A stretch of 64,000 nucleotides of DNA, taken from the NCBI RefSeq assembly GCF_963921235.1, contig NC_086108.1, forward strand, positions 87,298,001 through 87,362,000, written 5' to 3'. The notes beneath the pieces were generated by a model that was not told where the DNA came from, did no database searches, and saw only the letters and a list, made by a program, of their open reading frames with translations. This document shows positions 6,701 to 54,886 of this stretch, in pieces. Both the position numbers and the translations under genes were made by a program. How positions within the stretch are numbered: position 1 is the first letter of the stretch; each line of letters opens with the position of its first letter. This DNA comes from Mobula hypostoma. Its lineage: Eukaryota.

Positions 6701-6767
6701 GATTGGATATTGTGCTGACCTGTTCAACAACAGAGTAATTCAGATAAAATGGGATGTCTTTGGCACT

Positions 6768-11034: not shown

Positions 11035-12587
11035 CACAAAAAAAGGTCTGCAGATTCTGGAAATCCAAAGCAACACACACAAAATGCTGGAGAAACTCGG
11101 CAGGTCGGGTAGCATCCATGGAAATGAATAAACAGTCGATGTTTCAGGCCAAGACGCTTCTTCAGGACTAAAAAGAAAGGAGGAAGATGCCAGAATAAAA
11201 GGGTGGGGGAACAAGGAGAATAGCTAGAAGGTGACAGGTGAAGCTGGATGAGTAGGAAAGGTAAAGGGCTGGAGAGGAAGGAATCTGATGGGAGAGGAGA
11301 GTGAACTTTAGGAGGAAGGGCACCAAGGGGAGGTGACAGGCAAGTGAGAAGAGGTAATGGCCAGAGGGGAGAATTGAAGAAGAGGGAGGAGGAAGGATTT
11401 TTTTTACTGGAATGAGAAATCAATATTGTTGTCATCAGTTTGGAAGCTACCCAGACAGAGTATAAGGTGCTGCTCTTCCTCCTTGAGGGTGGCTTCATCT
11501 TGGCACAAGAGGCCATGGACGACATGCTGGAACTAAAGGGGGAATTGGAACTAAAATGTTTGGTCACTGGGTAGTTCTGCTTCTGTCAGATGGAGTGGAG
11601 GTGCTCGAAGAGCGGTCCCCCAATTTAAAACAGGTCTCAGCAATATAGAGAAGGCTGCATCGGGAGTACCGGGCGCAATAGACTGCCCCAGTAGATTCAC
11701 AGGGGAAGTGTTGCCTCACCTGGAAGGACTGTTTGAGGCCCTGAATAGAGGTGAAGGAGGGGATGAATGGGCAGGTGTAGCACTTTGGCCACTTGCAAGG
11801 ATTGGTGCCGCGAGAGTGATTACTGGGGAGGGACGAATGGACGAGGGAATGACGGAGGGAGTGATCCCTACAGAAAGCAAAGAGACGGGGTGGTAAAGGT
11901 ATGTTTTGTGGTAGGATTCCTTTGGACTTTAGGGAAGTTACGGAGAATGATGTGTTGGATGAGGAGACTCATGGAGTCATAGGTAAGGACAAGAGGAACT
12001 CTATCACCGTTAAGGCAGCGGGGAGATGTTTGGGAAATGGTTGAGATGCGGGTGAGAGCAGCATCAACAGTGGAGGAAGAGAAAGGAAGGAAAACATCTT
12101 TGATGTCCTGGAAAGGGAAACCTCACCCTGGGAATAGATACAGTGGAGCCAAAGGTACTGAGAAAAGGAAATAGCATTTTTACAGGAGACAGAGTGGGAA
12201 GAGGCCTAGTCAAGATAATCCTAGGAATCAATAGGTTTATAAAAAGATGGTGTTGACAGTTTGTCTCCAGAGATGGAGACAGAGAGATCGAGAAAGTGGA
12301 GGGAGATGTCAGAAATGGACCAAATGAATTTTAGGAAGCTGGAGGCAAAGGTGATGAAATTGAGAAACTCAGCACGGGTGCATGAAGCAACACAAATGCA
12401 GTCGTCAATGTAGAGGAGGAAGAGTTGGGGAACATTACCAGGGAAGGCTTGGAACATGGACTGTGCTACATAGCCAACAAAGAGACAGGCATAGCTGCAG
12501 CCCATGCAGGTGCCCATGGCTTCCCCTCGAGCCAGGATAAGGTGGGAGGAACCAAAGGGAAAAGCTGCTGAGGGTCAGGACAAGTTC
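11035..12587 (-). mobile_element. Penelope-like element, decayed (RT, GIY-YIG and terminal repeat)
   Basis: MGTCMGCSYACLFVGYVAQSMFQ..YIDD..FLDLSVSI at 12221-12517. GIY-YIG remnants at 11430-11750. Hammerhead motif at 11134-11169. Confidence 0.85.
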
Positions 12588-12639
12588 TAATGTTCATAAA
12601 GCCCAGGATCCTTTGTACTTGAAGACATTAAGCAACATT

Positions 12640-12990
12640 TTTGTTAAACTCAAGTGCATCTATGTTGAGACCTAAACCATTGATCTGATGCCAGGAGTTT
12701 GAATTTACATTCAAATTTTAATCGGGTGTAAGCTAGTTTTGTTAAATAAATCTGGAATGAAACGTTAACAACAGTAATGGGAACAATAAAACCAGGTTAT
12801 TGTGAAAACCCCTTATTCCAGTAATGTCCTTTAGGGAAAGAAGTCTATCATTCTTACCCTGTCTAGCCTTTTTGTGACTAACTATATACCCAAATACTTG
12901 ATCCTCAGATCTCACCTGCCCTACCCCAACAAGCCACTTAGTTTAGGAGCAATTATTGATGAACGGTAAATGCTGGTCCTATTGGTGGAA
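12640..12990 (+). repeat. Old dispersed SINE-like repeat
   Basis: Shares blocks (aataaatctggaat, taatgtcctttaggga, ataaatgctgg) with diverged copies at about 20310-20630 and 42770-43020. Confidence 0.4.
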
Positions 12991-13864
12991 ACAACATTTC
13001 AGGAATGAGAATGAAAATAATGTTTTGTCAGCTATGGGTCACTTTCCTCCTGAAAACAGAAGGCAGAGGTGGTGACCTAATACAGCTTTTCAGGATTATG
13101 AAAGGTTTTTCATCTGCTGGATTAAAAAATAAGAATGATTTTGCATGGATACATGTAACTATGCAGAGGGCATCATTAGCAGAGGAACTCTGAGGGGGTT
13201 ATTTTAACTCTGGGAGAGTTCCTCCCTTCTGCCGCCTGCATGGGATGATGAGTCTATGGGGACTTTGAGACTTTTTTTTACCGTGCCCATGGTCTGCTCT
13301 TCATCAAATTATGGTATTGCTTTGCACTGTTGTAACTATGTTATAATTACGTGGTTTTGTCAGTTTTAGTCTTGGTTTGTCCTGTGTTTTTCTTGTGATA
13401 TCATTCTGGAGGAACATTGTATCATTTTTTAATGCATGCATTTCTAAACGACAATAAACAAAAACTGAACTGAACTGAACTCAGAAGAAAGGTCTTCACT
13501 CAGAGAGCGGTGAGAATGTGGAAGCCATTAGCACAATGGGCGGTGTTAATAATAGGGCTGGTACGGCATATCTAAGTGGAAACTAGTCAATTGTGAGAGG
13601 CTTTCACTGACGGATTTGGATGAGGAAAGAAAGGAGGACACCCAGATAAAACATAAATGTTGACATTGACTGTTTCTGCCTGTATACCCTCTGTAGTTCT
13701 GTGTAATCTTGTTTTTAATCTGTCCCACCACATTTAAGGATTTGACAGAAACATCCTTTGGCTTTCTTCTGATCTTAAACTCCTTTGAAATTTTTAATGA
13801 TATTTTCTTTTAAAACATAAACATCCTGCAGTTTAACACTTTCTAGCTAAGCACAGCTTCAATG

Positions 13865-14030
13865 CTATATTTGTTTGGTGATGACACTGCTGTTGTTGGC
13901 CAAATCAAAGGCCGTGACAAATTGGCACATAGGAGAGAGATTAAAAATCTGGTTGAATGATGCCACACCAATAACCTCTCACTCAACATCAGCAAGACCA
14001 AAGAGCTGATAATTGACAAAAGTAGGAAGA
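13865..14030 (+). mobile_element. Rex1/Babar fragment
   Basis: DDTAVVGQIK..NNLSLNISKTKELIID-type remnant. Confidence 0.65.
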
Positions 14031-14383
14031 AGCTATAAGCTATAGGAGCAGAATTAGGCTATTTGGCCCATCGAGTCTGCTCCGCCATTTCAGCATAGCT
14101 GATGCAATTTTCCTCTCAGCCCTAATCTCCTGTCTTCCCCTCCCACCCCCATATCCCTTCATGCCCCGGCCAATCAAGAATTTATTAATCCCTGCCTTAA
14201 ATATATGTAAAGACTTGGCCTCCACAGCTACCTCTGGTAATGAATTCCACAGATTCACCACCCTCCAGTGATATAAATTCCTCCTTATCTCCATTCTAAA
14301 AGGACATCCCTCTATTCTAAGCAAAACACATCAAAGTTGCTGGTGAACGCAGCAGGCCAGGCAGCATCTGTAGGAAGAGGTGC

Positions 14384-14419
14384 AGTCGACGTTTCAGGCC
14401 GAGACCCTTCGTCAGGACT
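14384..14419 (-). ncRNA. Minimal type I hammerhead ribozyme motif
   Basis: AGUC-CUGACGA-A-GGGU(CUCG)GCCU-GAAA-CG-UC/GACU on the PLE sense strand. Confidence 0.75.
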
Positions 14420-14758
14420 AACTGAAGGAACAGTGAGTAAGGGATTTGAAAGTTGGAGGGGGAGGGGGAGATCCAAAATGATAGGAGAAGACAGGAGGGG
14501 GAGGGATAGAGCCAAGAGCTGGACAGGTGATAGGCAAAAGGGGATACGAGAGGATCATGGGACAGGAGGTCCAGGAAGAAAGACAAGGAGGGGGTGGAGG
14601 GGACCCAGAGGATGGGCAAGAGGTATATTCAGAGGGACAGAGGGAGAAAAAGGAGAGTGAGAGAAAGAATGTGTGCATAAAAATAAGTAACAGATGGGGT
14701 ACGAGGGGGAGGTGGGGCCTTAGCGGAAGTTAGAGAAGTCGATGTTCATACCATCAGG

Positions 14759-16065
14759 TTAGAGTCTACCCAGACGGAATATAAGGTGTTGTTCCTCCAA
14801 CCTGAGTGTGGCTTCATCTTTACAGTAGAGGAGGCCGTGGATAGACATGTCAGAATGGGAATGGGATGTGGAATTAAAATGTGTGGCCACTGGGAGATCC
14901 TGCTTTCTCTGGCGGACAGAGCGTAGATGTTCAGCAAAGCGGTCTCCCAGTCTGCGTCGGGTCTCGCCAATATATAAAAGGCCACATCGGGAGCACCGGA
15001 CGCAGTATATCACCCCAGCCGACTCACAGGTGAAGTGTTGCCTCACCTGGAAGGACTGTTTGGGGCCCTGAATGGTGGTAAGGGAGGAAGTGTAAGGGCA
15101 TGTGTAGCACTTGTTCCGCTTACACGGATAAGTGCCAGGAGGGAGATCAGTGGGGAGGGATGGGGGGACGAATGGACAAGGGAGTTGCGTAGGGAGCGAT
15201 CCCTGCAGAATGCAGAGAGAGGGGGGGGGAGGGAAAGATGTGCTTAGTGGTGGGATCCCGTTGGGGGTGGCAGAAGTTACGGAGAATAATATGTTGGACC
15301 CAGAGGCTGGTGGGGTGGCAGGTGAGGACCAGGGGAACCCTATTCCTAGTGGGGTGGCAGGAGGATGGAGTGAGAGCAGATGTACGTGAAATGGGGGAGA
15401 TCGTTTAAGAGCAGAGTTGATAGTGGAGGAAGGGAAGCCCCTTTCTTTAAAAAAGGAAGATATCTCCCTCATCCTAGAATGAAAAGCCTCATCCTGAGAG
15501 CAGATGCGGCGGAGACGGAGGAATTGCGAGAAGGGGATGGCGTTTTTGCAAGAGACAGGGTGAGAAGAGGAATAGTCCAGATAGCTGTGAGAGTCAGTAG
15601 GCTTATAGTAGACATCAGTGGATAAGCTGTCTCCAGAGACAGAGACAGAAAGATCTAGAAAGGGGAGGAAGGTGTCGGAAATGGACCAGGTAAACTTGAG
15701 GGCAGGGTGAAAGTTGGAGGCAAAGTTAATAAAGTCAACGAGTTCTGCATGCGTGCAGGAAGCAGCGCCAATGCAGTCGTCGATGTAGTGAAGGAGAAGT
15801 GGGGGACAGATACCAGAATAGGCATGGAACATAGATTGTTCCACAAACCCAACAAAAAGGCAGGCATAGCTAGGACCCATACGGGTGCCCATAGCTACAC
15901 CTTTAGTTTGGAGGAAGTGGGAGGAGCCAAAGGAGAAATTATTAAGAGTAAGGACTAATTCCGCTAGACGGAGCAGAGTGGTGGTAGAGGGGAACTGATT
16001 AGGTCTGGAATCCAAAAAGAAGCGTAGAGCTTTGAGACCTTCCTGATGGGGGATGGAAGTATATA
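14759..16065 (-). pseudogene. PLE reverse transcriptase (C-terminal part), Cys-rich linker and GIY-YIG endonuclease, 5'-truncated
   Basis: LYTSIPHQEG, GVAMGTRMGPSYACLFVG, HYIDD, LPFLDLSV, YYKPTDSHSYL, YPCKRNKCYTCPY, GVIYCVRCSRCGLLYIGETRRRLGDRFAEH. An out-of-frame middle segment lies between compensating frameshifts. A premature TAA occurs near the end. Confidence 0.9.
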
Positions 16066-16519
16066 ATTCCACATCCCATTCCCATTCTGACATGTCTATC
16101 CACGGCCTCCTCTACTGTAAAGATGAAGCCACACTCAGGTTGGAGGAACAACACCTTATATTCCGTCTGGGTAGACTCTAACCTGATGGTATGAACATCG
16201 ACTTCTCTAACTTCCGCTAAGGCCCCACCTCCCCCTCGTACCCCATCTGTTACTTATTTTTATGCACACATTCTTTCTCTCACTCTCCTTTTTCTCCCTC
16301 TGTCCCTCTGAATATACCTCTTGCCCATCCTCTGGGTCCCCCCACCCCCTCCTTGTCTTTCTTCCTAGACCTCCTGTCCCATGATCCTCTCGTATCCCCT
16401 TTTGCCTATCACCTGTCCAGCTCTTGGCTCTATCCCTCCCCCTCCTGTCTTCTCCTATCATTTTGGATCTCCCCCTCCCCCTCCAACTTTCAAATCCCTT
16501 ACTCACTCTTCCTTCAGCT

Positions 16520-16555
16520 AGTCCTGACGAAGGGTCTCGGCCTGAAACGTCGACT
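16520..16555 (+). ncRNA. Minimal type I hammerhead ribozyme motif
   Basis: agtc ctgacga a gggt ctcg gcct gaaa cg tc gact. Predicted cleavage after C16551. Confidence 0.75.
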
Positions 16556-19059
16556 GCACCTCTTCCTACAGATGCTGCCTGGCCTGCTGCGTTCACCAGC
16601 AACTTTGATGTGTGTTGCTTGAATTTCCAGCATCTGCAGAATTCCTGTTTGCGTTTTTTCCCTCTATTCTGTGTTCTTTGGTCTTAGACTCTCCCACGAT
16701 AGGAAACATCGTCTGCACATCCACTCTATCAAGGCCCTTCACCATTCGATAGGTTTCAATGAGGTCACCCCTCATTCTTCTGAATTTTAGTGAATACCAG
16801 CCCATAGCCATCAAGCGCTCTTCATATGACGATCCATTAAATCCTGGAATCATTTTTGTGAATCTCCTTTGAACCCTCTCCAGTTTCAGGACATCCTTTC
16901 TAAGATAAGGGGCCCAAATTTGCTCACAATATTCCAAGTGAGGTCTCACCACTGCTCGTTTACCTTCCTCACCACAAACTCAGACTTCAAATTAACCTTT
17001 AGGGAATCTTGCACAAGGACTCCCTAATCCCTTTGCATTTCAGATTTTTGTATTTTCTCTTCACTTAGAAAATAGTCTACCCTTTCATTTCTTCTACCAA
17101 AGTGCATGGCCATATACTTCCCGACACTGTATTCCATCTGCCACTTCTTTTCCCATTCTCCTAATCTGTCTAATTCATTCTGTAGCCTCTCTATTTCCTC
17201 AAAACTACCTGCCCCTCCGCCTATCTTTGTATCATCTACCAAATTTGCAACAAAGCTATCAATTCCATCATCCAAATCATTGACATATAACGTAAAAAGA
17301 ATTGATCCCATCACAGACTCCTGTGAAACACTACTAGTCCTGACCAAGATGGAAATCTAGTCACCGGCAGCCAACCAGAAAAGGCTCCCTTAATTCCTAC
17401 TCTTTGCCGCCCACCAATCAGCCACTGCTTTATCCATGCTAGAATCTTTCCTGTGTTATCATGGGCTACTAGCTTGTTAAGCAGCCTCATGTGTGGCACC
17501 TTGTCAAAGTACTTCTGAAAATCCAAGTACACAACATCAACCGACTCTCCTTTGTCTATCCTGCTTGTTATTTCTTCAAAGAATTCCATCAGGTTTGTCA
17601 GGCAAGATTGAGGAAACCATGTTGACTACGGCCCGTTTTATCATGTGCCTCAAAGTATCCTGAGACCTCATCCTTAATAATCAACTCCAACATCTTCCCA
17701 ACCACTGAGGTCAGATTAACTGGCCTATAATTTCCTTTCTTCTGCCTCTTTCCCTTGTTGAAGAGTGGAGTGACATTTGCAATTTTCCAGTCTTCCAGAA
17801 CCATTCCAGAATCTAGCAATTCTTGAAAGATCATTACTATTGCCTCCACAATCTCTTCAGCCACCTCTTTCAGAACCCTGGGGTGTACACCATCTGGTCC
17901 AGGTGACTTACCTACTTTCAGACCTTTCAGTTTCCCAAGAACCTTCTCTCGAGTAATGGCAACTTTACACAATTCATGACTCCTGACACCTGGAACTCCC
18001 ACCATACTGCTAGTGTCTTCCATAGTGAAGACTGATGCAAAATACTTACTCAGTTCATCTGCCATTTCCTTGCCGCCATTACTACTTCTCCAGCATTGTT
18101 TCCAGTGGTCTGATATCCACTCTCACCTCTGTATTAAACTTCATGTATCAGAAGAAACTTTTGGTATCCTTTTTAATATGATTGGCTAGCTTACTTTCAT
18201 ATTCCATCTCTACCTTCTCAATTACTTTTTCATTTGCCTTCTGCTGGTATTTAAAAGCTTTCCAATCCTCTCACTTCCCACTAATCTTTGCTCTATTATA
18301 CACCTTCTCCTTGGCTTTTATGTTGGCTTTGACTTCCCTTATTAGCCATGGTTGTGTCACCTTGCCTTTAGAATACTTCTTCCTCTTTGAGATGTATATA
18401 TCCTGTGCCTTCCAAATTGCTTCCAGAAATTACTGCTCTGCTGTCATCCCTGCCAGTGTTCTTTTCCAATCAATTCCGGCCAGCTCCTCTCTCATGCCTC
18501 TGCAATTTCCTTTCCTCCATTGTAATACTAATACATCTGGCTTTAGCTTAGCCTTCTCAAATTTCAGGGTGAATTCGATCATATCACTTTCCCCTAAGGG
18601 TTCTTCCACCTTAAGCTCTCTAATCAATTCATTATCCAGTTCATTGCACAGCACCCAATTGAGAATAGCTGATCCCCTAGTGGGCTGAATCATGAAATGC
18701 TAAAAAGGCATCTCCCCCTCCTGTAATCCCACATCAACCTGATTTTCCCAATCTACCTTCATATTAAAATCCCCCATGACTATTTTAACATTACTCTTTT
18801 GGCATGTATTTTCTATCTCATGTTGTAACTTGCAGACCATTTCCTTACATCTGTTTGGGGATCTGTATATAACTCCCATTAGGGTCTTTTTACCCTTGTG
18901 GTTCCTGAGCTCTATCCACAAAGATTCAACACTTTCCAACCCTTTGTCATCTTTCTGATGATTTAATTTCATTTTTTACTAATAGAGCCACGCCGCCCAC
19001 TCCCTCTGTCTTCTTGCCCATCCTTTCAATACAATGAAGCCCATGAGCTGTTCCTCATT

Positions 19060-19872: not shown

Positions 19873-21156
19873 TTATATTCTGATGAAAGCCCAATGGCGA
19901 CTTAACTCTCACAACATCAGGCAGTCTTGATGAAGGGACACATCCCAAAATGTCAACTGTTTATTCCTCTCCGTAGTTGCTGCCTGACATTCTGAGCTCC
20001 TTGATCATTTTGTGTGTGACTCTCACAATCTTTAACAAGTATTTACTGGAGCGCATGACATGCCATGACCTAGACGGTTATGGGCCAAATGCTGGAAAGT
20101 GAGATTAAGATAGAGAGGTAGATGGGTAGTTGACCTACACACAGCTGTAATGTGTACCAATGAAATGTGGTCCAATGTGAAAAGCCTGTTAATGATTCTG
20201 ACCACAAGCTATTGGTATAGAACATGTAGTAAACTTCAATGAGATCGGAAACTTCTTTCATTAATCTGGGGTATTGTAGAATTTTCTCATCAACCACATT
20301 ACAGGTGATTACTGAAAAATGTGGTTAAGTTACTGGTCAGGTAACCCAAGAACCAGGGTTAATATCTTGAGGTGTGCCATCAAGCAGATTCACAGCTTTA
20401 AATTCCTCAGTGGCTATCTGCAATAAAACGCTGGCGTAATCTTTCGTGGTGATTATTAAAATATCGAATTGTTGTTTGAAAAAAAGCCCACTTAGTGTAT
20501 TAATGTCTTCAGGCAAAGTCTTTGTTCAATTTGGCCCAGATGGAAATCTTGAATGGTTGAGACCCAAATGCCCTCTGAAAAGGTCCAATGAGTTATATGG
20601 TCCAAAGGAAAGCCAATAAATGCTGGCTTTTAAGAACTGTTCCCCTGGCTGTTAGGAATCTTCCATAAACTGTGGCTAACTAGTCTTATTTTCAGAGTAG
20701 AACTGTCAGGATGGGACTTCTAACTGACCTTCCAACTCTATTCAATAAGTTGAGGAATCAACCAGAACTCCCTAGAGGTATTGGAAAGTTCACTATAGGA
20801 GTAGTTCTTATTCAACTCGTTCCTTGTACATGCCAACCAATTATATAAAGTAACTGTTTAGGTTCCAAAGATTGATGGGGTTAAGCTCTCATTCAAGCTC
20901 ATGTTGTTGATTGGTAGTCTAGAGGGTTGCGCAGGAAGGGAGGTGTTAGAGTTCAGCGATTCACCTCTCCATGGACGATCAGTTTAAGTATGAGTCTGGA
21001 AGAAGCAGGGCAACACAGACTGTTTTGATTTTCTGACAGTCATTGAAGAGAATACCAACTTTTAAAATGACCTTAGCTCACAACAGAGGTGAATAGTGTT
21101 TATTTCTATAAGACAAGGAGAAAGAGGATATTAATTGAGCCTCCCCGTGATATGTG

Positions 21157-21717
21157 CACTCGGTAAACACTTTATTAGGCATTTCCTCTAACTAATAAAG
21201 TGGCCACTGAGTGTATGTTCCTGGTCTTCTGCAGCTGTAGCTCATCTACTTCGAGGTTTGACATGTGTGTTCAGAGATGTTCTGCACACCACTAACGTGG
21301 TTATTTGGGTCACTATCACCTTCCTTTCAAATTGATCCAGTCTGGCCGTTCTCCTCTGAGTTCTACCATTAACAAGGGGGTGTTTCTGCTCACAGAACTG
21401 CCGCTCACTGGATGCTTATTTGTTTTTTGCATCTTTCTCTGTAAACTCTAGACACTGTTGTGTGTGGAAATCCCAGGAGATCATCAGTTTCTGAAATACT
21501 TAAATCACCCCATCTGGCGCCAACAATCATTCCACGGTCAAAGACGCTTAGATCACATTTCTTCCTCATTCTGATATTTGGTCTTAACAGCAATTGAACG
21601 TTTTTGGCTATGCCTGCATGCTTTTATGCATTGAGTTGCTGCCACATGATTGGCTGATTAGATATTTGCATTAATGAGCAGGTTTACAGCTGTACCTAAT
21701 AAAGTGACTACTGAGTT
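21157..21717 (-). mobile_element. Non-autonomous Tc1-derived element (transposase N-terminal HTH remnant)
   Basis: TIR motif CACTCAGTGGCCACTTTATTAGG at both ends (imperfect). MRKKCDLSVFDRGMIVGAR..SISET..LLGFPHTTVSRVYRE. Confidence 0.8.
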
Positions 21718-21982
21718 TACATTCTCTTCATCCAAATAGTTTGTAAAAAAAAATATCCAATTATATCCCAGATATAGAAATAGAATGAGCTGCAAAATGA
21801 GCAAACCACCATCCTTTCAGTAAAACCAGGAATGTGTCCTGAGAGTAGACAGATGAGGACAAAACTGTTAAGGACTACGACAGGAACGCCTTTCTCCTTT
21901 TACTTTCTGAGAGCTTCAGGGTAATTAATTTGCCTCCAGCTTTAATTTGCTCAGATGTTTGCTGGAAGATGACCCGAAACGC

Positions 21983-22068
21983 AGCAGGAATGCCGCATTT
22001 AATATCAAAGCAGGAATGCCGCATTTAATATCAAAGCAGGAATGCCACATTTAATATCAAAGCAGGAA
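21983..22068. repeat. 26-bp tandem repeat x3.3 (AGCAGGAATGCCGCATTTAATATCAA)
   Basis: Direct inspection. One substitution in the third unit, no spacers. Confidence 0.9.
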
Positions 22069-23466: not shown

Positions 23467-23522
23467 GGCTAAAGGATCCTTATTGTGTTATACTGTTGTA
23501 AATCCTTCCTACGTGTAAATAT

Positions 23523-23987: not shown

Positions 23988-24200
23988 CTGAAATTGAAAG
24001 CAACACACACAAAATGCTGGGGGAACTCAGCAGGTCAGGCAGCATCTGTGGAAATGAACAAGCAGTCGTTGTTTCGGGATCTCGGCCTGAAACATATACT
24101 GTTCGTTCATTCCATAGATGCTGTCTGACCTGCAAAGTTCCTCCTGCATTTTGTGTATGTTGCTTTAAATTTCCAGCGTCTGCAGATTTTCTTGCGTTCG
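23988..24200. repeat. Fold-back hairpin of PLE terminal sequence centred in hammerhead stem II
   Basis: About 90-bp imperfect inverted arms meeting at gtttcggg-atctcg-gcctgaaac. Confidence 0.8.
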
Positions 24201-24329: not shown

Positions 24330-25290
24330 CCAAGTTCAGATTTAATTGTCATTCAACCAGACACGTAAATACATCTAACACACACAAAATGCTGGTAGAA
24401 CACAGCAGGCCAGGCAGCATCTATAGGAAGAGGTACAGTCGATGTTTCGGGCCGAGACCCTTCATCAGGACTCACAAATACAGCTCAACCAGACTCCTAA
24501 ATAGAGCTGATCGAAACAGTTCCAAAAGTTGCAAATCACAGTACCAACAGTCACACACAGCACATGGCCACATATAGCACATGTAATTACCACAGCAGTA
24601 AAACACAGTCATATAATAATAATAAAATAATAATAGTAATAATAATATAGCCCAAGTCCATTAGTGTCATGGCCTGTAGATAGATGGTGCATGGGATGAT
24701 TGTCCTGGAGCCACGTTTCTGCAAAAACAAGTACACAGCAGTTCCTCAACACCCGCTACTCCAGTTGCAGATGAACACAATACAGCTTCTCTTCCACCAG
24801 GCGAACACTGGAGAGCAGCACCCCAAACCAGCCTGGACACCCAGCATGCCACACCGCCTCCGGCATCTTTTCTCCTAGGTGGCCGCAGCAGGTGACTCCA
24901 CAGCACCAGGACCTGGTCTGTCTGAGGCCACACAGCTCCCCTGCCATCGGCTCACAAATGAAGCAGTGAACCATATTTTCAGTATTCTACCAATATCTAA
25001 CAGGGTCTTGCAATCACAAGAAAAATGTCCAGGACAATCATTTGCACCATTTGTTAGACTGTGCACCACTTTCACATATCACCTTCAGTGCCTTCCTCCT
25101 TGGCTGACTGTAACAGGCAGAAACACGGCACACAACCAGTCCAACTCCTCCGCTGTTGAGCAACTCACTGAAGGGATAGACCTGCAGTGCCTGATGTTCT
25201 TAATATTCAGCAGTGCCCTGCGATCATGAAAAAGGCACAAAGGATGTTTGGACCCAGAGAGGCCACTATGACCCAGTGCGCCACCATCAT
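24330..25290 (-). mobile_element. Non-coding non-autonomous retroelement (Rex/Babar-like tail)
   Basis: 5' end (a)tgatggtggcgca on the minus strand resembles aagatggtggcgc at 52717 and aagatggcac at 48979. The 3' tail (aatgacaattaaatctgaac) resembles those at about 13450, 32780 and 53280. Confidence 0.45.
24378..24472 (-). mobile_element. Short PLE terminal insert carrying a hammerhead motif (24437-24472)
   Basis: Reverse complement: agtc ctgatga a gggt ctcg gccc gaaa ca tc gact. Degenerate TSD AAATACATCT / AAATACAGCT. Confidence 0.75.
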
Positions 25291-30760: not shown

Positions 30761-31762
30761 CATCTAACTCTGTCAAACATGATTTATCTTTCCATGTTGA
30801 ATTTGCTTGATTCAGGTTGTAATGACCTGAGAATATTATACAGAACCTACACACTGAACTTCTTTCTCCAATGCAATGTTCATTCAGTGAAAGACCTGGG
30901 ATTTACAAGATGGATCTGTTCCAAAGAGCACATTTTAACTACTCTTAATCCTTTCATATTCAGAAGTCCCAACTCCTTTGAAAAAATTTGTAAGGCTTTG
31001 TGAAACAGGATGGGGGAGTAGGTTTATCTGGATTGCTCTTACATAGAGCTGATAAAGTCTCAATGATCCATATAGTCTCCCCCCATGCTCTAACTACTCC
31101 GTGATTCGGTCAAACACGTCCTCCAACTGAAAATTCCAATAACCTTTTACATCGTCCACAATCTTGTGTATCTTAGCATTACATTTCTTTTTCTAGTAGT
31201 AAAATGAATAGTGCTGATTGCAGCCACAAAGGCATCAAAACAATTTCATCCTGAGTAATTTGTTAAAAAGGAAAATTAGTAAAACTGCATGCTCACCAAC
31301 ATTTAATTCAGAATTTCCATTTTCCAGCTGAGAATTTCTATGGCTTTATGCTCCAGTAGAGGAGGCTGTAGGCACCATATCATCTTAATAATGTCACTAG
31401 CCAGTCTACAGAATGCACTTCAAAATGGTGATGAACGATTGATTTCCTGCTTTATGTACATAATTATGCTGCAATAAATATGCAACCTTACTATTTTTCC
31501 GTAACTCCAGAGTGTTGACCCTCTAAAGCAGGAAGGAAAATTCTTCTGAGGTTGAAGTTTCAAAACATTTCTTTAAACTTGAAAACAGGTTGCTCTGCAT
31601 TTTAATTTACAAAACAACAAACAAAAGCTAACACCAGCAGGAGGTACAGAATCCTGAAGTCCCATGCCACCAGGTTCAGGAACAGCTAATATTTGGAGCC
31701 AACCCTAATCCTTGAGGCATGCAATATTCCCGCCACTGTTCTAACACCTTTGTACAGGAGCA

Positions 31763-32257
31763 AGATGAAGCCACACTCAGGTTGGGGGAACAACACCTTA
31801 TATTCCATCTGGGTAGCCTCCAACCTGATGGCATGAACATTGACTTCTCAAACTTCTGCTAATGCCCCACCTCCCCCTCGTACCCCATCCGTTATTTATA
31901 TACACACATTCTTTTTCTCTCTCTTCTTTTTCTCCCTCTGTCCCTCTCACTATACCCCTTGTCCATCCTCTGGGCTTTTTCCCCCCCTCCCCCTTTTCTT
32001 TCTCCCTAGGTCTCCTGTCCCATGATCCTCTCGTATCCCTTTTGCCAATCAACTGTGCAGCTCTTGGCTCCATCCCTTCCTCTCCTGTCTTCTCCTATCA
32101 TTTTGGATCTCCCCCTCCCCCTCCCACTTTCAAATCTCTTACTAGCTCTTCTTTCAGTTAGTCCTGACGAAGGGTCTCGGCCCGAAACGTCGACTGTACC
32201 TCTTCCTAGAGATGCTGCCTGGCCTGCTGCGTTCACCAGCAACTTTGATGTGTGTTG
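31763..32257 (+). mobile_element. PLE 3' terminal fragment with intact hammerhead (32160-32195), inserted in a Rex1/Babar remnant (about 31715-32800)
   Basis: Near-identical to 16120-16617. Motif agtc ctgacga a gggt ctcg gccc gaaa cg tc gact. The flanks rejoin as ...YRSTIESVLSDCIIVWY. Confidence 0.85.
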
Positions 32258-33577
32258 CACCATTGAAAGTGTCCTGTCTGACTGCATTATTGTGTGGTAC
32301 AGAAGTTGCAAGGCATCAAACCACAAAACCCAATTGATGATGGTAGAAGCCGCCGGGAGGTTCACTGGGGTCTCCCTCCCCTCTGTATTTGTGACATTTG
32401 CTGGGAGTAATGAGCATGATGGACCCAAAGCATTGTTGAGGATCCCTACCATCCATTCCACAATATCTTTGACCCTCTGCTATCAGGAAGGAGATACAGG
32501 GTGGAAGTACAACAGCATCAGGACTAGGACTGCCAGACTGGGGAACATCTTCTTCCTCCTGCTGTGAGACTGATGAATACCCTACCACCACTGAGGTCTC
32601 ATCACGAGGACAGTAAGCTTTTTTACCTGAGCTATGTACTTCACATGCGTTTTGAATTATATTTTATTAACTTATGTGTAGTAATATTTTGTTTTATTGC
32701 TGTGTGTGATATATGATGTGTGGGCGAACCATGGTCCAGAGGAATGTTGTTTCATTTGGTTGTATACATGTACAGTCAGATGACAATAAACCTGAACTTA
32801 ATCTTGATCTCTCTCTCTGCAATGGGATGCTACAGACCACCTTTTGCGCAACTACGTGCATGTCTCTGATTATGTTTTTATTGCACTCTTGATTACACAC
32901 TTTATTTTCTTCATTATCTGGCATAATTTTTGTATCTTATGTATTGTGCGTTGTCTGAATCCACGGGCCTGCAAGGTTTTCATTCTAACTTTACCCTCCA
33001 ATACATATATATTTAACGACAAACTCGGCATGACATCCGAAGACATTTTAACAAAGAAACTCCTAAAACAGTAAAGAAAGTAAATCAGGAGCAATTAGGA
33101 TTGGAAGTAGTGAGGCAGAAGTATTTTGTTAGTGCTGAGCCAAGTAAAGGGGGTAAGTCAAAACAACCAATGATTCAGGGCAGAATATAGAAATGCAGGA
33201 TGATATAGAAGTAACATGGACTGTGTAATAGAGTAGTTGCTAAATAAGGAGTGATAGCAAAATGCAGGGAAAGTGGATGTTATCAGGCAGATTTGGATAA
33301 CAATATTCTAAACACCCTGTAAACAATATATGATGGAAAATTGGCTATGAAAGCATCAGAGAATATAATAAATCAATCATAAATCAAGTCAAGTTTAAAG
33401 TCGTATATACAAGTACATGCATGCTCAACTAGAACAAAACAAAAGTCCACTGCAGTCATTGTGCTGCTATACTGAGCTACTAATTAGAGTTGACTCAGGA
33501 ACCAGATGTTTAAAGGGAAGTAGCTGTTCTTGGATTTCACTGCGGTACAGTGAAAAGCTCCACTTGTACGCTTTCCA

Positions 33578-33860
33578 TAACACAAAAGATTCTGCAGATG
33601 CTGGGAATCCAGAGCTACACACACACACACACACACACAATCCAGGAGGAACTCAGCAAATCAGGCAGTACCTATGGAGAGAAATAGACAGTCCTCGTTT
33701 CAGGCAGAGACCCTTCATTAGGACTGGAAAAGAAGGAGGAAGAAGCCAGCATAAGGAGATGGGGAAAGGAAGGAGTACAAACTGCCAGGTGATAGGTGAA
33801 ATAAGGTGGGTGGGTGAGGGGTGAAGAAGTGAGGACCTGGGAGGTGAAGGTGGAAGTTGG
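33578..33860 (-). mobile_element. PLE terminal-repeat fragment with decayed hammerhead
   Basis: ttctgcagatgctgg..cacacacaa..gtttcaggcagagacccttcattaggact. Confidence 0.7.
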
Positions 33861-34682: not shown

Positions 34683-34775
34683 CAACACACACAAAATGCT
34701 AGAGGAACTCAGCAGGCCAGGCAGCATCCATGGAAAAGAGTACAGTCGATGTTTCAGGCTGCGAATCGTCATCAG
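34683..34775 (-). mobile_element. Short PLE terminal fragment
   Basis: caacacacacaaaatgctagaggaactcagcaggccaggcagcatc..cagtcgatgtttcagg..tcatcag. Confidence 0.7.
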
Positions 34776-41495: not shown

Positions 41496-41869
41496 TTTAT
41501 GTATTTATTTACTCATTTATTGAGATGCACTGCGGAATAGGCCCTTCCAACCCTTCGAGCTACACTGCCCAGCAATCCTGCGATTTAATCTTAGCCTAAT
41601 CACAAGACAATTTACAATGACAAATTAACCTAAGAAACTGATATGTCTTTGGACTGTGGAGGAGAATCCCACCAGGGCACAGGGAGAATGTCCCAACTCC
41701 TTACAGACAGTGGCAGGAATTGAACTTGGGTCACTGGTACTGTAAAGCATTGTGCTAACCACTACACCACCCTGCCATTATTGTTTCCCCTTGTACTACC
41801 ACAATTCATTGCTGTAATGAAATGAAAAACAAAGTTTTTAATTGTACTCTGTTTCATATGACAATAATT

Positions 41870-42405: not shown

Positions 42406-43647
42406 TAATAAAGCAATTTGCCAACATCATTTCATTTTTTTCATACTACTCTGTATTTCATCCTTCTCTTTTTCATAGCACTGGCTGAGCAAGATGCTTA
42501 GAGAAAGGATACTTTTGGGAAATGGAGGTTAATTAACCTCCAAAGGACTAATCCTAGAAAAATACAGGTTGCAGCAAAAGCCAAGTTCAATTCTCTCAAT
42601 CTAAAGATTTTTCATGGAAAGGGATGAGTAAGACTGAGCCTATCTGAATCACAGTTATGAGGTAACAAGTTATTGGGAAAGAACATAAGGAATAGGAGCA
42701 GGAGTAGGCCATCCGGCCCATTGAGCCTGCTCCACTATTCAATAAGATCATGGCTGATCTGACCATGGAGATACCTAGAGGCCTGAATATAAATCCAGAG
42801 ATCCAATTTGGAATCCTACCATGATAGCTGTGATTTTTTAAAAATATAGTCACTAACAACAATAAGATGATCTACTACTGCACATCAGTAAAGACAACCA
42901 GCTCATCAGACCTGTCTGGTCCATATATGACACCAGATCTATAACAACGTGGTTCAATCTGAAATGGATTCTCAAGCCCATTAAGTTGATAGAAAATTAA
43001 GAATGAGTCTTTCTACCAATGTGCAGGTTGGTCCACCAATTTCACTCTGGTGTTTCTGGAAAATTGAGGGCATTGGAATTAATATGGATGGCAATTATCC
43101 AGACGAGAAAGAGTGACCAAAATTATCTGATGCACAGTTCAACGATCAAGTGAGTTAATAGCAGGCACAGTCAACAAGAAATGCATGGGTTAATATCAAA
43201 ATGCCAAATGCAGTGTTTGGGAATGATCATTCCTGCCACATGCTTTCAATTCAATCGATGCTTAAAATAAGGCTGGACCTGGATAACACAGTAATTAGCT
43301 CATCATTCTCTGAAGCTGAAGGGAGGGTCAATAAGGAAAGAAATTCATTGTGTTTTTGCATCAGAGTAATGGTTATGAAGTTTAGCAGAGTTACTGATAG
43401 ATCTGAGTTCATGCCTTTAGGAGAGGAAGGTTGAAGTATGCGTGCTGATGTACACTACAAATGGTTGCACCCATGTTTAATGTTTCTCTGATTCCCCAGA
43501 AGCGGTAATATTATAATCAGTGCCCAAGAGATCCCTGCAGGAGCTTAGGTCTGAGCTCCAATGACAATGTATCAATGCAGTGAGAACAATATACCAGACT
43601 ATGTGTAATTTTTGAAAACTTTTTAATGATAGCATTTCAAGAATGAC

Positions 43648-44260
43648 GTTAGTCCTCATCCAATCAGGTTTCCGCTGCCCCACCTTGTTTACAATCAAAT
43701 TCCAGTTCTTACTTAGAGCGAGACCTTTGTGTTTGTGAAAATTCTTTTTCTCTAGCTTTATTTCAATGGTTTCCTTCACCTGGCATTCCCAAAAGCCATC
43801 AGTGTGGCACAGCAGTTTTGTGTCGCGGTCAGTCCTATGGCCATTGTAAATGTAATGTTCTGCTTCCACCGATTTCTCTGGGTAACCCAAACGCATACAC
43901 TTCCTGTGTACCTTGATGCGGGCTTCCACCTTGCATCCCGTCTGGCCAATATAGACTGTTCCGCATTCACAGGGAATCCTGTAACTGCCAGCCATCCTGA
44001 GTCCCAGGTCATCTTTGACCCCCATAAGCTGTGATTTGAGCTACCTTCATTCAGTTAGTCCTGACGAAGGGTCTCGGCCTGAAACGTCGACTGTACCTCT
44101 TCCTAGAGATGCTGCCTGGCCTGCTGCGTTCACCAGCAACTTTGATGTGTGTTATTTGAGCTACCTTGCAGGTTTATAGATGTTATTTGGGGATGTCACC
44201 TTCTGAGAACAGGAGCTATGGTGGTCATCTGGAATTGAAGTTGCTGTCCCTTGTAGACTA
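43648..44260 (-). mobile_element. Second PLE type (Poseidon-like) GIY-YIG fragment
   Basis: AGSYRIPCECGTVYIGQTG..EARIKVH..AEH..GH..KETIEIK. No Cys-rich linker is seen in the fragment. Confidence 0.8.
44048..44153 (+). mobile_element. 106-bp hammerhead-bearing PLE insert with 14-bp TSD
   Basis: TSD ATTTGAGCTACCTT at 44034-47 and 44154-67. Intact motif at 44057-44092. Confidence 0.9.
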
Positions 44261-48977: not shown

Positions 48978-49765
48978 CAAGATGGCACTGGTGATATAAG
49001 GTGACATTTTCCCTGGCAGCTAGCAAAACTACTAACTATTCTACTAAATATACTTTTTCTGGACTAAGATCACTGCATCCTGCAGTCTGTAATTTCGCTT
49101 CGGGAGTTGTGCTTTTGAACTCTCTGAGCAATCTAGCGTTTTTGCAGTATCCAGAAGGATTAGCAAACTGGACTCCCAAGAATACAGGTACGGCCGTGGC
49201 GGCCATTGCTTGGGTGGACTTCAAGCCAGATTGAAATTTAGGATCAGAATGAAACTTCGAGCTGGATAGAAGCAACAAGGGCTGGCACCTGGAGCAAAAA
49301 AAAACAAGCCAATGTTAAGACAATTTTAACGCAAGCCTGTATTGAGGCTGAAGGCGGAGGACAAACCAGTGTTCCATGTCAGCCAGGATTCTCCATCCGA
49401 GCCTGTCCCATCTGCCTGCATTTGACCCATCTCCCTTTCTTCTCAGTATTATCAACAGGCAGAAGGTGCAAGAGTCTTGGACCCCATGCCATCAGGTTAG
49501 GGAGCCGTCCACTCCTGCTCCTCGACTGGCTCTACTTGCCTCAGGGCTGAACTGACTTTGTGGCTGTGGGCTCACTTTGGGAACTCAGCAGTTCATGGTC
49601 TGTGTATTATTTATCTACTTTTCTCGTTATTTGCATGATCTGTTCTTCTTTGGCACTTTGGATGTTTGACAGACCTTGTTTTGTGGAGTTTTTTGATGGA
49701 TTCTGTTGTTTCTTTGTGTTGTGGCTGCCTGCAAGATGAACCTCAAGATTGTATATGGTACTCTG
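48978..49765 (+). mobile_element. Non-autonomous retroelement/Rex-type tail, 3' end split by the CR1 (tail resumes at 51427-51460)
   Basis: Starts aagatggc. The tail gaacctcaagattgtatatggt...catatatacattaaatgtactttgaactttgaac matches Rex-type tails at about 19800-19872 and 25470-25540. Confidence 0.45.
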
Positions 49766-51426: not shown

Positions 51427-51724
51427 ATATATACATTAAATGTACTTTGAACTTTGAACTAAGTTTATGCTGGCTATCAATCAACCATATACATTAATTG
51501 TAAATTAAATATATGTTAATCTCACATTCCAAACAACTGCCCCCAGCTTTAATGCTCACCAACACACTAGGGATAAAGGAGAGGTCCAAGTTCACCTACC
51601 AATCCACGTATGGTTTGGAATGAGTGAGGAAATTAGAGCACACAGGGGAACCTTCTTGATCACAGAAAGAACTTATAGACTCCACATGTACAGCACCAGA
51701 TATCAGGAGTGAACTTGTTCACTT

Positions 51725-52430
51725 ACTGAGGTCAAGAGCCATGGGGTAATGTTAAACCTATATAAGACCTTAGTTGGATGCCATTTAGAGTACTGTAAAG
51801 TCACAGACAAGAGAAAATCTGCAGATGCTGGAAATCCGAGCAACACACACAAAATGCTGGAGGAACTCAGCAAACTAGGCAGTACCTATGCCTGGAGTAC
51901 TATGTTCAGTTCTGGTCACTTCACTACAAGAAGGATGTGGAAACTATAGAGAGAGTGCAGAGGAGATTTACAAGGATACTGCCTGGATTGGAGGGCGTAC
52001 CTTATGAGAATAGGTTGAGTGTACTTGGCCTTTTCTCCTTGGAGTGACAGAGGATGAGAGGTGACCTGATCGAGGTGTATAAGATGATGAGGGAAATTGA
52101 TCATGTGGATAGCCAAAGGCTTTTTTCCCAGGCTGAAATGGCTAACACAAGGGGACATAGTTTTAAGGTGCTTGAAAATAGGTACAGAGGTGATACCAGG
52201 GGTAATTTTTTTACACACAGAGTGGTGACTGTGTGGAATGTACTACCAGCGACAGTGGTGGAGGTGGATACAATAGGGTCTTCTAAGAGCCTCTTAGGTA
52301 GGTACTTGCTTAGAAAAATAGAGGGCTATGCGGTAGGGAAATTCTAGGCAGTTTCTAGAGTAGGTTACGTGGCTGGCACAACATTGTGAGCCAAAGGGCC
52401 TGTAATGTGTGGTAGATTTCTCTGTTCTAT
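51725..52430 (+). mobile_element. CR1 3' fragment interrupted by a ~95-bp PLE tail piece (about 51797-51890)
   Basis: LYKTLVG.HLEYC|insert|LEY.VQFWS. GAGTACT is duplicated either side of the insert. MRGDLIEVYKMM follows. Confidence 0.8.
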
Positions 52431-52708
52431 GGATCAGCTTTATTCACTGCATTTTCGAATTCAAGTTTATTATCAATCAACCCAACACAAGTATACAGCT
52501 AAACAAAACATCATTCCTCTGGGGCCAAGATGCAAAATACAGAAACCAGATATAGTTACAATCCAGCACATACAGACACAAAATAAAATCAGACAACTCC
52601 CCGAGTGTCATAGCCTTAAGATGACAGGTCGACATCGAGCATAAGGAATACATTTACGTATGGCAATATAATGTTAATGGCGCTATTATAGTAAAACAAA
52701 CTAAGGTA

Positions 52709-53320
52709 GGAGGAAAAGATGGTGGCGCGCCTGTGTGTGCACAGCCCTCCGGTGAAAAATTATACCGTAGCTGTTAAATAGGGGCCGAGGACAATTCTGA
52801 TTTGATGGCGAATGGACATGAAAGCACAGAGGAACATCCGGAGAAATTTCTGAAACGCCCGTTCGCTGCTGTCATTATTGTGTGGTCGGGAATCTTTCAG
52901 AGGGTAGGCCTTGCCTGCTTTTGGCGACCGAGAAGGAGGTAGAATCGTTCAGACAGGGATGGCGCTCAGTACTCGATGTCGGAGAGCTGATCAGAGCTCG
53001 AGGTCTTCGGACGACTCAGAGTCCGATTGTGGTCGGCACGGCAGGGAGAGTTTTTCTTCCTTCTCCCGTCTGCGTGAGATGTGGGACATTTGAGAGACTT
53101 TGAACTTTACTGTGCTCAGGGACTTCTTCATCAAGTTATGGTATTGTTGCACTGTTTTTAACTGTAGGTTATAATTATGTGGTTTTGTCAGTTTTTTCAG
53201 TCTTGGTCTGTCCTGTGTTTTGAGATATCACACCGGAGGAAATAATGTATCATTTCTTAATGCGTGCATTACTAAATGACAATAAAAGAGGACTACGTGT
53301 CTTCATAATCTAAAAAAAAA
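52709..53320 (+). mobile_element. Non-coding, CpG-rich non-autonomous retroelement
   Basis: 5' AAGATGGTGGCG start. The 3' ~200 bp is shared with 13255-13480. Ends in an A-run. Confidence 0.6.
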
Positions 53321-53614
53321 CAGTCATATAAATATGTGAAACAGCTGTAATAAAAGATGAAAAGTGACCAGCACAGGTTGAGAGCATATCAGTGAGTTGT
53401 GGAGTGGAGGTGGGGGAGAGGCAACAGAACATTCTGACAAAGTGTACCTGGGACAATTTTGGAGCCACGATTGGACAAGCTGCCAAATATGTAAAGATCC
53501 TTTAAACTCATGTTTTTGGCAATTTATCAATTTCTAGCTTAAGCCTTAATTGCTGGCATTGAAAATAAAATCTCTTTCCTTCGAATTTTAATTGTCAAAT
53601 TCCAAAAGAAATCA

Positions 53615-54886
53615 ACACACATAAAAGTTGCTGGTGAACGCAGCAGGCCAGGCAGCATCTCTAGGAAGAGGTACAGTCGATGTTTCGGGCTGAAACCCTT
53701 CATCAGTACTAACTGAAAAAAGAGCTAGTAAGAGATTTGAAAGTGGGAGGGGGAGGGGGAGATCCAAAATGATAGGAGAAGACAGGAGGGGGAGGGATGG
53801 AGCCAAGAGCTGGACAGGTGATTGGCAAAAGGGGATACGAGAGGATCATGGGACAGGAGGCCTAGGGAGAAAGAAAAGGAAGAGGGGGGGAAAAATGCCC
53901 AGAGGATGGGCAAGGGGTATAGTGAGAGGGACAGAGGGAGAAAAAGGAGAGAGAAAAAGAATGTGTGTATATAAATAAATAACGGATGGGGTACGAGGGG
54001 GAGGTGGGGCATTAGCGGAAGTTTGAGAGGTCAATGTTCATGCCATCAGGTTGGAGGCTACCAAGATGGAATATAAGGTGTTGTTCCTCCAACCTGAGTG
54101 TGGCTTCATCTTTACAGTAGAGGAGGACGTGGATAGACATATCAGAATGGGAATGGGACGTGGAATTAAAATGTGTGGCCACAGGGAAATCCTGCTTTCT
54201 CTGGCGGGCAGAGCGTAGGTGTTCAGCGAAACAATCTCCCAGTCTGCGTCAGGTCTCACCAATAAACAGAAGGCCGCATCGGGAGCACTGGACACAGTAT
54301 ATCACCCCAGCCAACATAGGTGAAGAGTTGCCTCACCTGGAAGGACTGTCTGGGGCCCTGAATGGTGGTAAGGGAGGAAATGTAAGGGCATGTGGAGCAC
54401 TTGTTCCGCTTACAAGGATAAGTGCCAGGAGGGAGATCGGTGGGGAGGGATGGGGGGGACGAATGGACAAGGGAGTCGTGTAGGGAGCGATCCCTGCGGA
54501 AAGTGGGGGTGGGGGGCAGGAAAGATGTGTTTAGTGGTGGGATCCCGTTGGAGGTGGTGGAAGTTACAGAGAATAATATGTTGGACCCAGAGGCTGGTGG
54601 GGTGGTAGGTGAGGACAAGGGGAACCCTATTTCTAGTGGGGTGGCGGGAGGATGGAGTGAGAACAGATGTGCGTGAAATGGGGGAGATGCATTTGAGAGC
54701 AGAGTTGATGGTGGAGGAAGGGAAGCCCCTTTCTTTAAAAAAGGAGGACATCTCCCTCATCCTGGAATGAAAAGCCTCATCCTGAGAGCAGATGCGGTGG
54801 AGACAGAGGAATTGCGAGAAGGGGATGGCATTTTTGCAAGAGACAGGGTGAGAAGGGGAATAGTCCAGATAGCTGTGAGAGAAATC
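53615..54886 (-). mobile_element. Young PLE 3' fragment with 16-bp TSD and hammerhead (53675-53710)
   Basis: TSD ATTCCAAAAGAAATCA at 53599-53614 and 54887-54902. Same family as 14319-16658. Confidence 0.9.

Follow-up and report, generated by a model that had tools for sequence, protein, structure and literature searches.

Type I minimal hammerheads on 5'-truncated Neptune-type Penelope-like elements of a ray, with lone copies that are probably inert

A minimal hammerhead ribozyme motif recurs on both strands of a 64-kb stretch of Mobula hypostoma DNA (the window), which raises the question of whether such dispersed copies cut RNA and in which transcript they would do so. The answer that we favor with considerable confidence is that these are type I minimal hammerheads on the pseudo-LTRs of 5'-truncated Neptune-type Penelope-like elements (PLEs), that they likely cut only in the tandem transcript of a master element, and that the lone copies are probably inert.

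Occurrence of the motif

Seven 36-mers proposed in a preliminary description of this DNA were confirmed at their exact coordinates and strands:

11134..11169, minus strand: minimal hammerhead of an older subfamily, ACAU, C.C mismatch in stem II
14384..14419, minus strand: minimal hammerhead, ACGU, G10.1.U11.1; its C3 lies 344 nt past the ORF stop
16520..16555, plus strand: minimal hammerhead, ACGU, within the inverted arm 16064-16624
24437..24472, minus strand: minimal hammerhead, ACAU, on a solo 100-bp pseudo-LTR fragment (24376-24475)
32160..32195, plus strand: best minimal hammerhead, ACGU, G10.1-C11.1, predicted cut after C32191
44057..44092, plus strand: minimal hammerhead, ACGU, inside a 106-bp solo insertion (44048-44153)
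53675..53710, minus strand: minimal hammerhead, ACAU, stem I with an A.G mismatch adjoining the core

The copies share the layout CUGANGA-A-stem II-GAAA-CR-UC/GACU, and the invariant core (C3, U4, G5, A6, G8, A9, G12, A13, A14, A15.1, U16.1 and H17) is complete in all seven. The proposed cut position agrees with this numbering, C32191 being position C17 of the 32160 motif. The first pair of stem II is G10.1-C11.1 in three copies and a G10.1.U11.1 wobble in four. Stem mismatches had been described and are present at 11134 and 53675; the ACGU palindrome (15.1-16.1, without loop 3) that had been described with them is found in only four of the seven (14384, 16520, 32160 and 44057). It is broken in 11134, 24437 and 53675 because these carry ACAU, a CpG-type change, so that a palindromic 15.1-16.1 is found in the family and not in these three copies. 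CpG-type changes among the copies occur at N7, 15.2 and 16.2.

A relaxed minimal-hammerhead descriptor was run on the window, with 100 order-2 Markov shuffles as the control. It returned eight matches, the seven named copies and an unconvincing one at 3609-3648, while the shuffles gave a mean of 0.23 and a maximum of 2. The abundance of the motif is far above chance, and core-intact copies occur about once per 9 kb. Of the model searches that had been suggested, the descriptor found every copy, but an Rfam scan gave no hammerhead family match at E<=1, likely because the hammerhead covariance models expect a stem III. Among 50 pattern matches in viral contigs there were no relatives.

An HMM built from the seven named copies and searched over the window recovered all seven decayed sites listed previously (5373, 6560, 9282, 9979, 19916, 33627 and 34684), two of them weakly (5373, E 0.39; 9282, E 0.058). 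It also found pieces absent from that list, at 10077 (plus), 23999 (minus)/24077 (plus) and 51839 (minus). The description of a high-copy family was right. The decayed sites and further pieces belong to the following features:

5373..6702, unstranded: older inverted-pair PLE insertion with decayed hammerheads at 5373-5395 (minus) and 6567-6600 (plus), tail on the plus arm
9282..9314, minus strand: decayed hammerhead that stops exactly at C17 and abuts the (TTCTGA)n 3' tail of a plus-strand LINE
9979..10166, unstranded: very small inverted pair of PLE 3' ends, the minus arm with a decayed hammerhead and the plus arm with the tail
19916..20018, plus strand: decayed hammerhead on a short pseudo-LTR fragment
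23990..24198, unstranded: two very short PLE 3' ends in inverted orientation, with their junction inside stem II; absent from the earlier list
33578..33845, minus strand: decayed hammerhead on an older pseudo-LTR fragment with tail
34683..34775, minus strand: decayed hammerhead; the match starts at C3 and lacks the 5' strand of stem I
51801..51888, minus strand: PLE 3' end with tail, starting downstream of the hammerhead

The end of the 9282 copy at C17 is explained by the LINE tail, which abuts with GA microhomology; this is a single case, and the rest of that motif was not found.

The host element and its insertions

The best-preserved host sequence is organized as follows:

14319..16658, unstranded: compound PLE insertion, a 5'-truncated Neptune-type copy on the minus strand and an inverted 3'-end copy, head-to-head
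14759..16063, minus strand: remnant of a Neptune-type ORF, containing the RT from motif A onward (YIDD), the linker, and GIY-YIG with CxxC and HH
16625..16658, plus strand: PLE tail of about 30 nt on the 16520 arm, absent at the 14319 end

The insertion is flanked by a 12-bp target-site duplication (14307-14318 and 16659-16670), and its arms are identical in 557 of 563 columns. Three more inverted pairs in the window likewise have a tail of about 30 nt on one end. In the ORF, the CX2-5CxxC linker is CKRNKCYTC at residue 330, whose C330 and C338 do not vary across an alignment of 20 proteins, and the EN residues are of the CCHH type (IYCxxCxxCxxxYIGET, EH..H..H). The match to PF01541 (E 3.5e-4, 21.3 bits) lies just under the curated cut-off of 22.6. 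At about residues 235-275 the sequence is unlike all homologs, likely owing to frameshifts that compensate each other, and the frame ends prematurely. Among named proteins, those of rays are closest. An RT followed by a C-terminal GIY-YIG, the linker and a CCHH-type EN are features of Neptune EN+ PLEs (Craig et al. 2021, PMC8557442), as are the 5' truncation, the inverted 5' arm, the 30-40 bp tail on one end and the hammerhead in the pseudo-LTR. Unlike those elements, no full-length or direct-tandem master copy was found within the 64-kb window.

Same-sense ORF remnants precede five of the seven named copies, and the other two represent this 3' end as solo fragments. For example, the 53675 motif is 3' of a remnant at 55054-54054 that is 91% like the 14319 element, the 11134 motif is 3' of one at 12562-11449 and its tail reaches 11036, and the copy around the 32160 motif (31761-32258) includes the last 20 EN codons. 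The motif copies are the 3' pseudo-LTR ends of 5'-truncated PLEs of Neptune type, a type assigned here from motifs and not from a tree, the linker being also present in Nematis. The original reading, that the motifs are type I minimal hammerheads of PLE terminal repeats, is upheld.

The short solo copies could instead belong to a separate non-autonomous, SINE-like or retrozyme family mobilized by Neptune, a reading that we consider decidedly unlikely. Several copies of about 100 bp have their start between -12 and +7 nt relative to the stem I edge, as such a family might, and the 44048 copy is bracketed by a clean target-site duplication of 14 bp (44034-44047 and 44154-44167), with a Poseidon-type EN remnant (43477-44040, minus strand) as its left flank. 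In addition, a 2026 preprint derives animal retrozymes from pseudo-LTRs (10.64898/2026.07.22.740005). However, copy lengths form a gradient, about 90 bp at one extreme and 1.7 kb at the other, with 3' ends in common, and the 44048 copy shares 98% identity with the copy at 32160, which is linked to the ORF. There is also no tandem among the motif copies, the nearest same-strand neighbors being at least 397 nt apart and not head-to-tail. Non-LTR retrozymes of animals (10.64898/2026.07.22.740005; see also PMC7229834) share the type I hammerhead and a relation to pseudo-LTRs and are reported in one chondrichthyan genome. They are head-to-tail tandem units, each with a hammerhead and no ORF; the window copies do not form such units, being dispersed or inverted, several of them joined to RT-EN remnants.

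The ray element resembles PAc, the Poseidon PLE of Anolis carolinensis (Frangieh et al. 2024, PMC11167929). In PAc, too, the hammerhead precedes two alternative 3' ends, by which the tail is defined, and insertions keep both sides of the cut site. Here the 3' ends fall into two classes, about C17+55 to +76 and +89 to +107, and public contigs have loose ends near the 16625-16658 tail, at 16617-16619 and 16646-16649. All window copies with the 3' half of the motif retain sequence on both sides of C17, and insertions starting at the cut site were sought and none was found at C17+1 among them. By analogy with PAc (PMC11167929), the RT of the element may start on uncut RNA, at either of two internal sites that lie downstream of the hammerhead, copy back through the hammerhead and usually fall off early, so that every insertion would deposit one hammerhead. 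The two elements differ in that PAc, whose activity was measured, is of the Poseidon clade and its ORF starts inside the hammerhead, no such open frame being established here.

Conservation of the hammerhead fold

The minimal hammerheads of metazoan PLE pseudo-LTRs were described by Cervera and De la Pena in 2014 (PMC4209133), who reported them for Neptune PLEs of fishes; no cartilaginous fish appears among the rows of Table S1 and Fig. S3 that were seen. The ray motif resembles them in CUGANGA followed by one unpaired base, a short stem I, G10.1 opening stem II, GAAA, a palindromic 15.2-16.2 without loop 3, and the prevalence of lone copies on truncated PLEs and of opposite-strand pairs. It differs in the frequent G10.1.U11.1 and, relative to Schistosoma, in a stem II of 4 bp instead of 7-8 bp. 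The extra A between positions 9 and 10.1 is indeed present in all seven copies and in 22 of 22 aligned rows. It is not special to this family, as had been suggested, but a hallmark of metazoan PLE minimal hammerheads, and was dropped as a novelty: the published consensus CUGANGAH includes it (PMC4209133 text, Fig. S3). Since 2014 the literature has contained the motif and its extra base, along with the dimer model and the insertion architecture.

Among metagenome invertebrate Neptune loci with at least 500 nt downstream, 12 of 46 have a sense minimal hammerhead by a strict descriptor, all 12 with the extra A, and 34 have none by that descriptor. Two loci, L003 and L015, have an upstream inverted hammerhead arm as well. 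A loose pattern matched 25 of 54 loci in sense and 13 in antisense and was too noisy for counting. For covariation, 16 foreign rows were chosen by eye from the 25 loose matches, giving an alignment of 22 rows. Stems I and II are paired in 91.8% of cells, compared with 22-36% for slid control pairings, and two-sided changes occur in 40 stem cells, a number reached by 0 of 500 shuffles; stem I is open. Since stems I and II covary around a core that the invertebrate loci keep, the motif is a hammerhead fold under selection. Alignments of diverged relatives in public contigs are confined to 16520-16556, with divergence to either side. Across lineages the core is more conserved than its flanks, the outcome that the preliminary description called for. 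Within the window, 9 of 142 core cells differ, which makes the core better conserved than all flanks together (109 of 769; p 0.009) but not than the downstream hairpin block (35 of 368; p 0.29). No conserved structure was detected in the 3' block and tail (two-sided change in 0 of 21 pairs, 6 copies).

These data bear on the possibility, which we consider unlikely, that the young ray subfamily keeps the motif as a structural or protein-binding landmark of PLE RNA, non-catalytic even in masters. In its favor, G10.1.U11.1 is found in four of seven copies, and U11.1 is the majority letter in four of four runs (C at 13-41%, tallies biased towards the reference), compared with G10.1-C11.1 in 16 of 16 invertebrate rows. 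The runs are of contigs, not reads, and show neither expression nor start or end peaks. Further, hammerhead mutants of the Anolis element did not impair insertion in vitro, for which the hammerhead was not needed (PMC11167929), and Naiads proliferate without hammerheads (PMC8557442). Against it, catalytic bases are kept from invertebrate Neptunes to the ray family while the stems covary, and U4, G5 and G8 have no variant of 4% or more in any of the four runs, among the tallies listed (C3 and the A positions are not cleared).

Predicted folding and the fate of dispersed copies

In the predicted fold of a lone copy, G5-A6-N7-G8 pairs with C15.2-N16.2-U16.1-C17, which sequesters the core. The locked monomer is predicted at -12.9 kcal/mol and the open-core fold at -8.9, and the active double hammerhead at -16.7 compared with -25.8 for two locked monomers, by nearest-neighbor energies that ignore Mg2+ and tertiary contacts. 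This preference is a further point for a landmark role. In a 91-nt context the predicted values are only 0.14 for formation of stem I and 0.24 for the locked helix, and therefore the fold depends on the flanks. The locked helix was considered as a selected switch and rejected, since N7/16.2 seemed to covary in the window copies, but across the 22 rows nine are unpaired and the score was reached by 110 of 500 shuffles. The locked helix is a by-product of the core sequence.

Published minimal hammerhead monomers showed no cleavage and dimers were cleaved weakly (PMC4209133), while the Anolis PLE hammerhead cleaved only with the PLE protein (PMC11167929). For the ray copies, cleavage would need a second hammerhead that builds stem III through ACGU/ACGU, and the element protein is probably needed to refold the RNA. 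The cutting form is likely a protein-assisted double hammerhead in the tandem transcript of the master element. The palindromic stem III of the preliminary description could form in only four of the seven copies, and none of the seven has the tandem partner that dimer cleavage needs. Because only four carry ACGU, none is in tandem and the monomer is predicted to be core-locked, the dispersed single copies are likely inert leftovers rather than working self-cutters, and it is probably only in the master transcript, aided by protein, that cleavage is of consequence.

That dispersed copies cut host transcripts through ACGU pairing, in cis between two same-strand copies of one pre-mRNA or in trans between two RNAs, possibly switched on by a PLE protein, seems to us very improbable. 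The density of core-intact copies, four of them with ACGU, would allow it, thousands of contigs from runs guessed to be RNA cover the region, and a PLE protein can activate its own hammerhead (PMC11167929). Several observations oppose it. First, the sole plus-strand ACGU pair without an inverted arm is 32160/44057, 11.9 kb apart. Secondly, the single ACGU copy of the minus strand belongs to an inverted pair of 563 bp, and copies in such pairs would be buried in long duplexes. Host read-through on both strands, envisaged should the region be intronic, is unsupported, and any one transcript reads a single strand. Third, the palindrome is hit by CpG-type decay in both directions. In addition, no host exon was found among 136 scanned frames (10 plus 126 of the 204 frames of at least 75 aa), which hold only retroelement domains, a scan that would miss short exons. 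Lastly, no Anolis reads ended at the hammerhead site (PMC11167929). Were host RNA nevertheless cut under element-protein control, this would be a new transposon action on the transcriptome. An extended form has about 100 core-intact hammerheads per Mb, locked as monomers, masked in inverted pairs by ADAR-edited duplexes and refolded by Neptune protein to cut host transcripts at C17. The family would then be a set of RNA cut sites spread over the genome and switched by protein, a reading to which we give a very small chance.

With the copies read as truncated PLE ends that are probably inert, this is a very abundant vertebrate Neptune family whose subfamilies differ at 11.1 (C or U), material for asking if cleavage by PLE hammerheads takes place in vivo and if selection acts on catalysis. 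Seven copies per 64 kb, if typical of the genome, would far exceed the approximately 4,000 of coelacanth and 9,000 of Xenopus (PMC4209133). Among the invertebrate relatives, the hammerhead of L015 equals the published Acropora Neptune example letter for letter over the motif (PMC4209133).

Hammerhead motifs and their conservation

Seven 36-nt minimal hammerheads had been assigned positions and strands in a preliminary description, and all were found exactly there: 11134(-), 14384(-), 16520(+), 24437(-), 32160(+), 44057(+) and 53675(-). The cut base predicted there, C32191, is C17 (the base 5' of the cut) of the 32160 copy. A relaxed descriptor search of the window gave eight matches, the seven plus a poor one at 3609; 100 Markov shuffles of the window gave a mean of 0.23 and a maximum of 2. 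All seven decayed sites already listed were recovered by an HMM built from the seven motifs (two of them weakly, at E 0.39 and 0.058), as were three further pieces of Penelope-like elements (PLEs). An Rfam scan of the window returned no hammerhead match. The motif is real and was rightly recognised. The palindromic stem III proposed for it, ACGU, is present in four of the seven copies; 11134, 24437 and 53675 carry ACAU. The extra A between positions 9 and 10.1 is likewise present but not new, since it stands in the published consensus CUGANGAH and the extra base is named in the discussion of the same paper (PMC4209133).

The metagenome set comprised 80 loci with related ORFs, of which 46 reach the end of the endonuclease (EN) with at least 500 nt downstream. 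By strict descriptor, a sense minimal hammerhead is present in 12 of these, each with the extra A, and absent from 34. The motif of locus L015 is identical to the Acropora Neptune hammerhead in PMC4209133. Stem pairing was scored on six window copies and 16 of 25 loci matched by a looser pattern, picked by eye (three near-duplicates, four degenerate and two doubtful loci were dropped; three with a core mismatch were retained). Stem cells were paired in 91.8% of cases, with 40 two-sided changes; none of 500 shuffles was as high, and slid controls gave 22-36%. The count of covarying pairs, taken by itself, did not exceed that in shuffles, which reached it in 56 of 500 cases. In contigs of four runs, diverged relatives align across 16520-16556 and diverge to either side. 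By this alignment and these contigs the core is more conserved than its flanks across lineages, a comparison on which the preliminary description had staked its reading. Support is weaker among the window copies alone: 9 of 142 core cells differ, versus 109 of 769 in all flanks (p 0.009) and 35 of 368 in the downstream block (p 0.29). Changes among these copies cluster at CpG sites N7, 15.2 and 16.2 and run either way, a pattern that decay after insertion would be expected to leave.

Four of the seven motifs have U at position 11.1, forming G10.1.U11.1 at 16543 and its equivalents in 11134, 14384 and 44057. In the contigs examined this wobble predominates; all 16 aligned invertebrate Neptune hammerheads have G-C. 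The young ray subfamily with this wobble may carry a weakened ribozyme.

The literature search turned up no paper with chondrichthyan PLE hammerheads as its subject, and none was seen in the available part of Table S1 and Fig. S3 of PMC4209133. A 2026 preprint (10.64898/2026.07.22.740005) describes retrozymes from a single chondrichthyan and records Neptune and Poseidon elements across five classes of vertebrates; its supplements may list the window's family.

Insertions carrying the motifs

In frame 16111-14759(-) a CKRNKCYTC linker joins a PLE reverse transcriptase (RT) remnant to a GIY-YIG domain. The first 16 residues of the frame derive from an inverted arm, so the real ORF remnant starts near 16063. 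Among named proteins the nearest belong to Mobula (72-89%) and Hypanus (65-70%), which points to a probable ray host. The linker places the element as putatively Neptune or Nematis type (PMC8557442). The PLE insertions with inverted arms are:

14319-16658, single insertion: 5'-truncated copy plus inverted copy of its own 3' end
5373-6702, further PLE inverted pair
9979-10166, further PLE inverted pair
23990-24198, further PLE inverted pair

The arms of 14319-16658 are identical in 557 of 563 columns, a tail of about 30 nt is on one arm only, and a 12-bp target-site duplication flanks the insertion. The window's insertions share the arrangement of PLEs in PMC8557442, which PMC11167929 attributes to two internal RT start sites. 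Invertebrate Neptune loci L003 and L015 have the same layout as 14319-16658, with an additional inverted hammerhead-bearing arm about 2 kb upstream. Five of the seven motifs are preceded by ORF remnants; 24437 and 44057 lie in solo PLE fragments of about 100 bp each, the latter flanked by a 14-bp duplication. PLE 3' ends in the window form two groups, one about 55-76 nt and the other about 89-107 nt beyond C17, and public contigs have loose ends at both positions.

Short copies at 44048, 24475, 34775, 10066 and 19921 begin about -12 to +7 nt from the 5' edge of stem I, not at the cut site; subfamily divergence upstream may account for these starts in part. The decayed hammerhead at 9282-9314(-) stops exactly at C17, abutting the (TTCTGA)n tail of a plus-strand LINE; the other side did not yield the rest of the motif. 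A second PLE at 43477-44040(-) is a Poseidon-type endonuclease remnant (YRIPCECGTVYIGQTG) in which no CX2-5CxxC was seen and no hammerhead of its own was found; a Neptune fragment of 106 bp borders this remnant at the 5' edge.

Predicted folding and fate of the copies

In the predicted fold of a lone copy, GACG pairs with CGUC and buries the core (-12.9 versus -8.9 kcal/mol for the open fold). The active double hammerhead is predicted at -16.7 versus -25.8 kcal/mol for two locked monomers; these energies leave out Mg2+ and tertiary contacts. In flanking context the predicted ensemble is mixed (stem I 0.14). No window copy has a tandem partner, and the only plus-strand ACGU pair free of an inverted arm lies 11.9 kb apart. 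No copy in the window starts at C17+1; insertion templates would therefore have been uncut or re-ligated. In PMC4209133 a monomer did not self-cleave and multimers did so weakly. In PMC11167929 cleavage required the PLE protein, insertion in vitro did not need the hammerhead, and read ends were absent at its site. Because of the predicted monomer lock, the lack of tandems and of C17+1 starts, and these published results, cleavage, if any, would probably occur in the tandem transcript of a master element, and the dispersed window copies would be inert cargo.

Host context, editing-like sites and other repeats

No host exon was found in the window; all Pfam matches among 136 frames are retroelement domains. 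The proposed intronic read-through of both strands is thus hypothetical, and a single transcript would cover one strand only. Pyrimidine tracts with YAG lie directly 5' of or overlapping stem I at 16505-16521 and 6555-6570, resembling candidate 3' splice sites; a Drosophila virilis Penelope intron ends at helix I (PMC4209133).

Ten places vary at 3% or more in two runs guessed to be RNA, yet below 0.5% in comparison run X21, which has another organism code and unstated kind. Nine of the ten are A>G or T>C, versus 6 of 25 other rows (p 0.0006; cut-offs were chosen after the table was seen, with five displayed rows excluded and six rows not displayed). The stretch 16432-16570 holds the nine (eight A>G, one T>C), at 3-19% in contigs of the two runs. 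These look like candidate sites of A-to-I (ADAR) editing in the inverted arms; Penelope elements are reported as leading ADAR targets in a lizard (PMC5625713) and Xenopus tropicalis (PMC10636886).

Other repeats include a CR1/L2-type LINE at 61036-63999(+), whose broken frames encode a GDSL esterase as ORF1, an APE endonuclease and an RT. A weak tRNA match under the gathering score at 41705-41776(-) probably represents the tRNA-derived head of a SINE. At 21152-21722, 28-bp inverted arms with 515 nt between them have a MITE-like appearance, and a related copy lies at 55866-56377.
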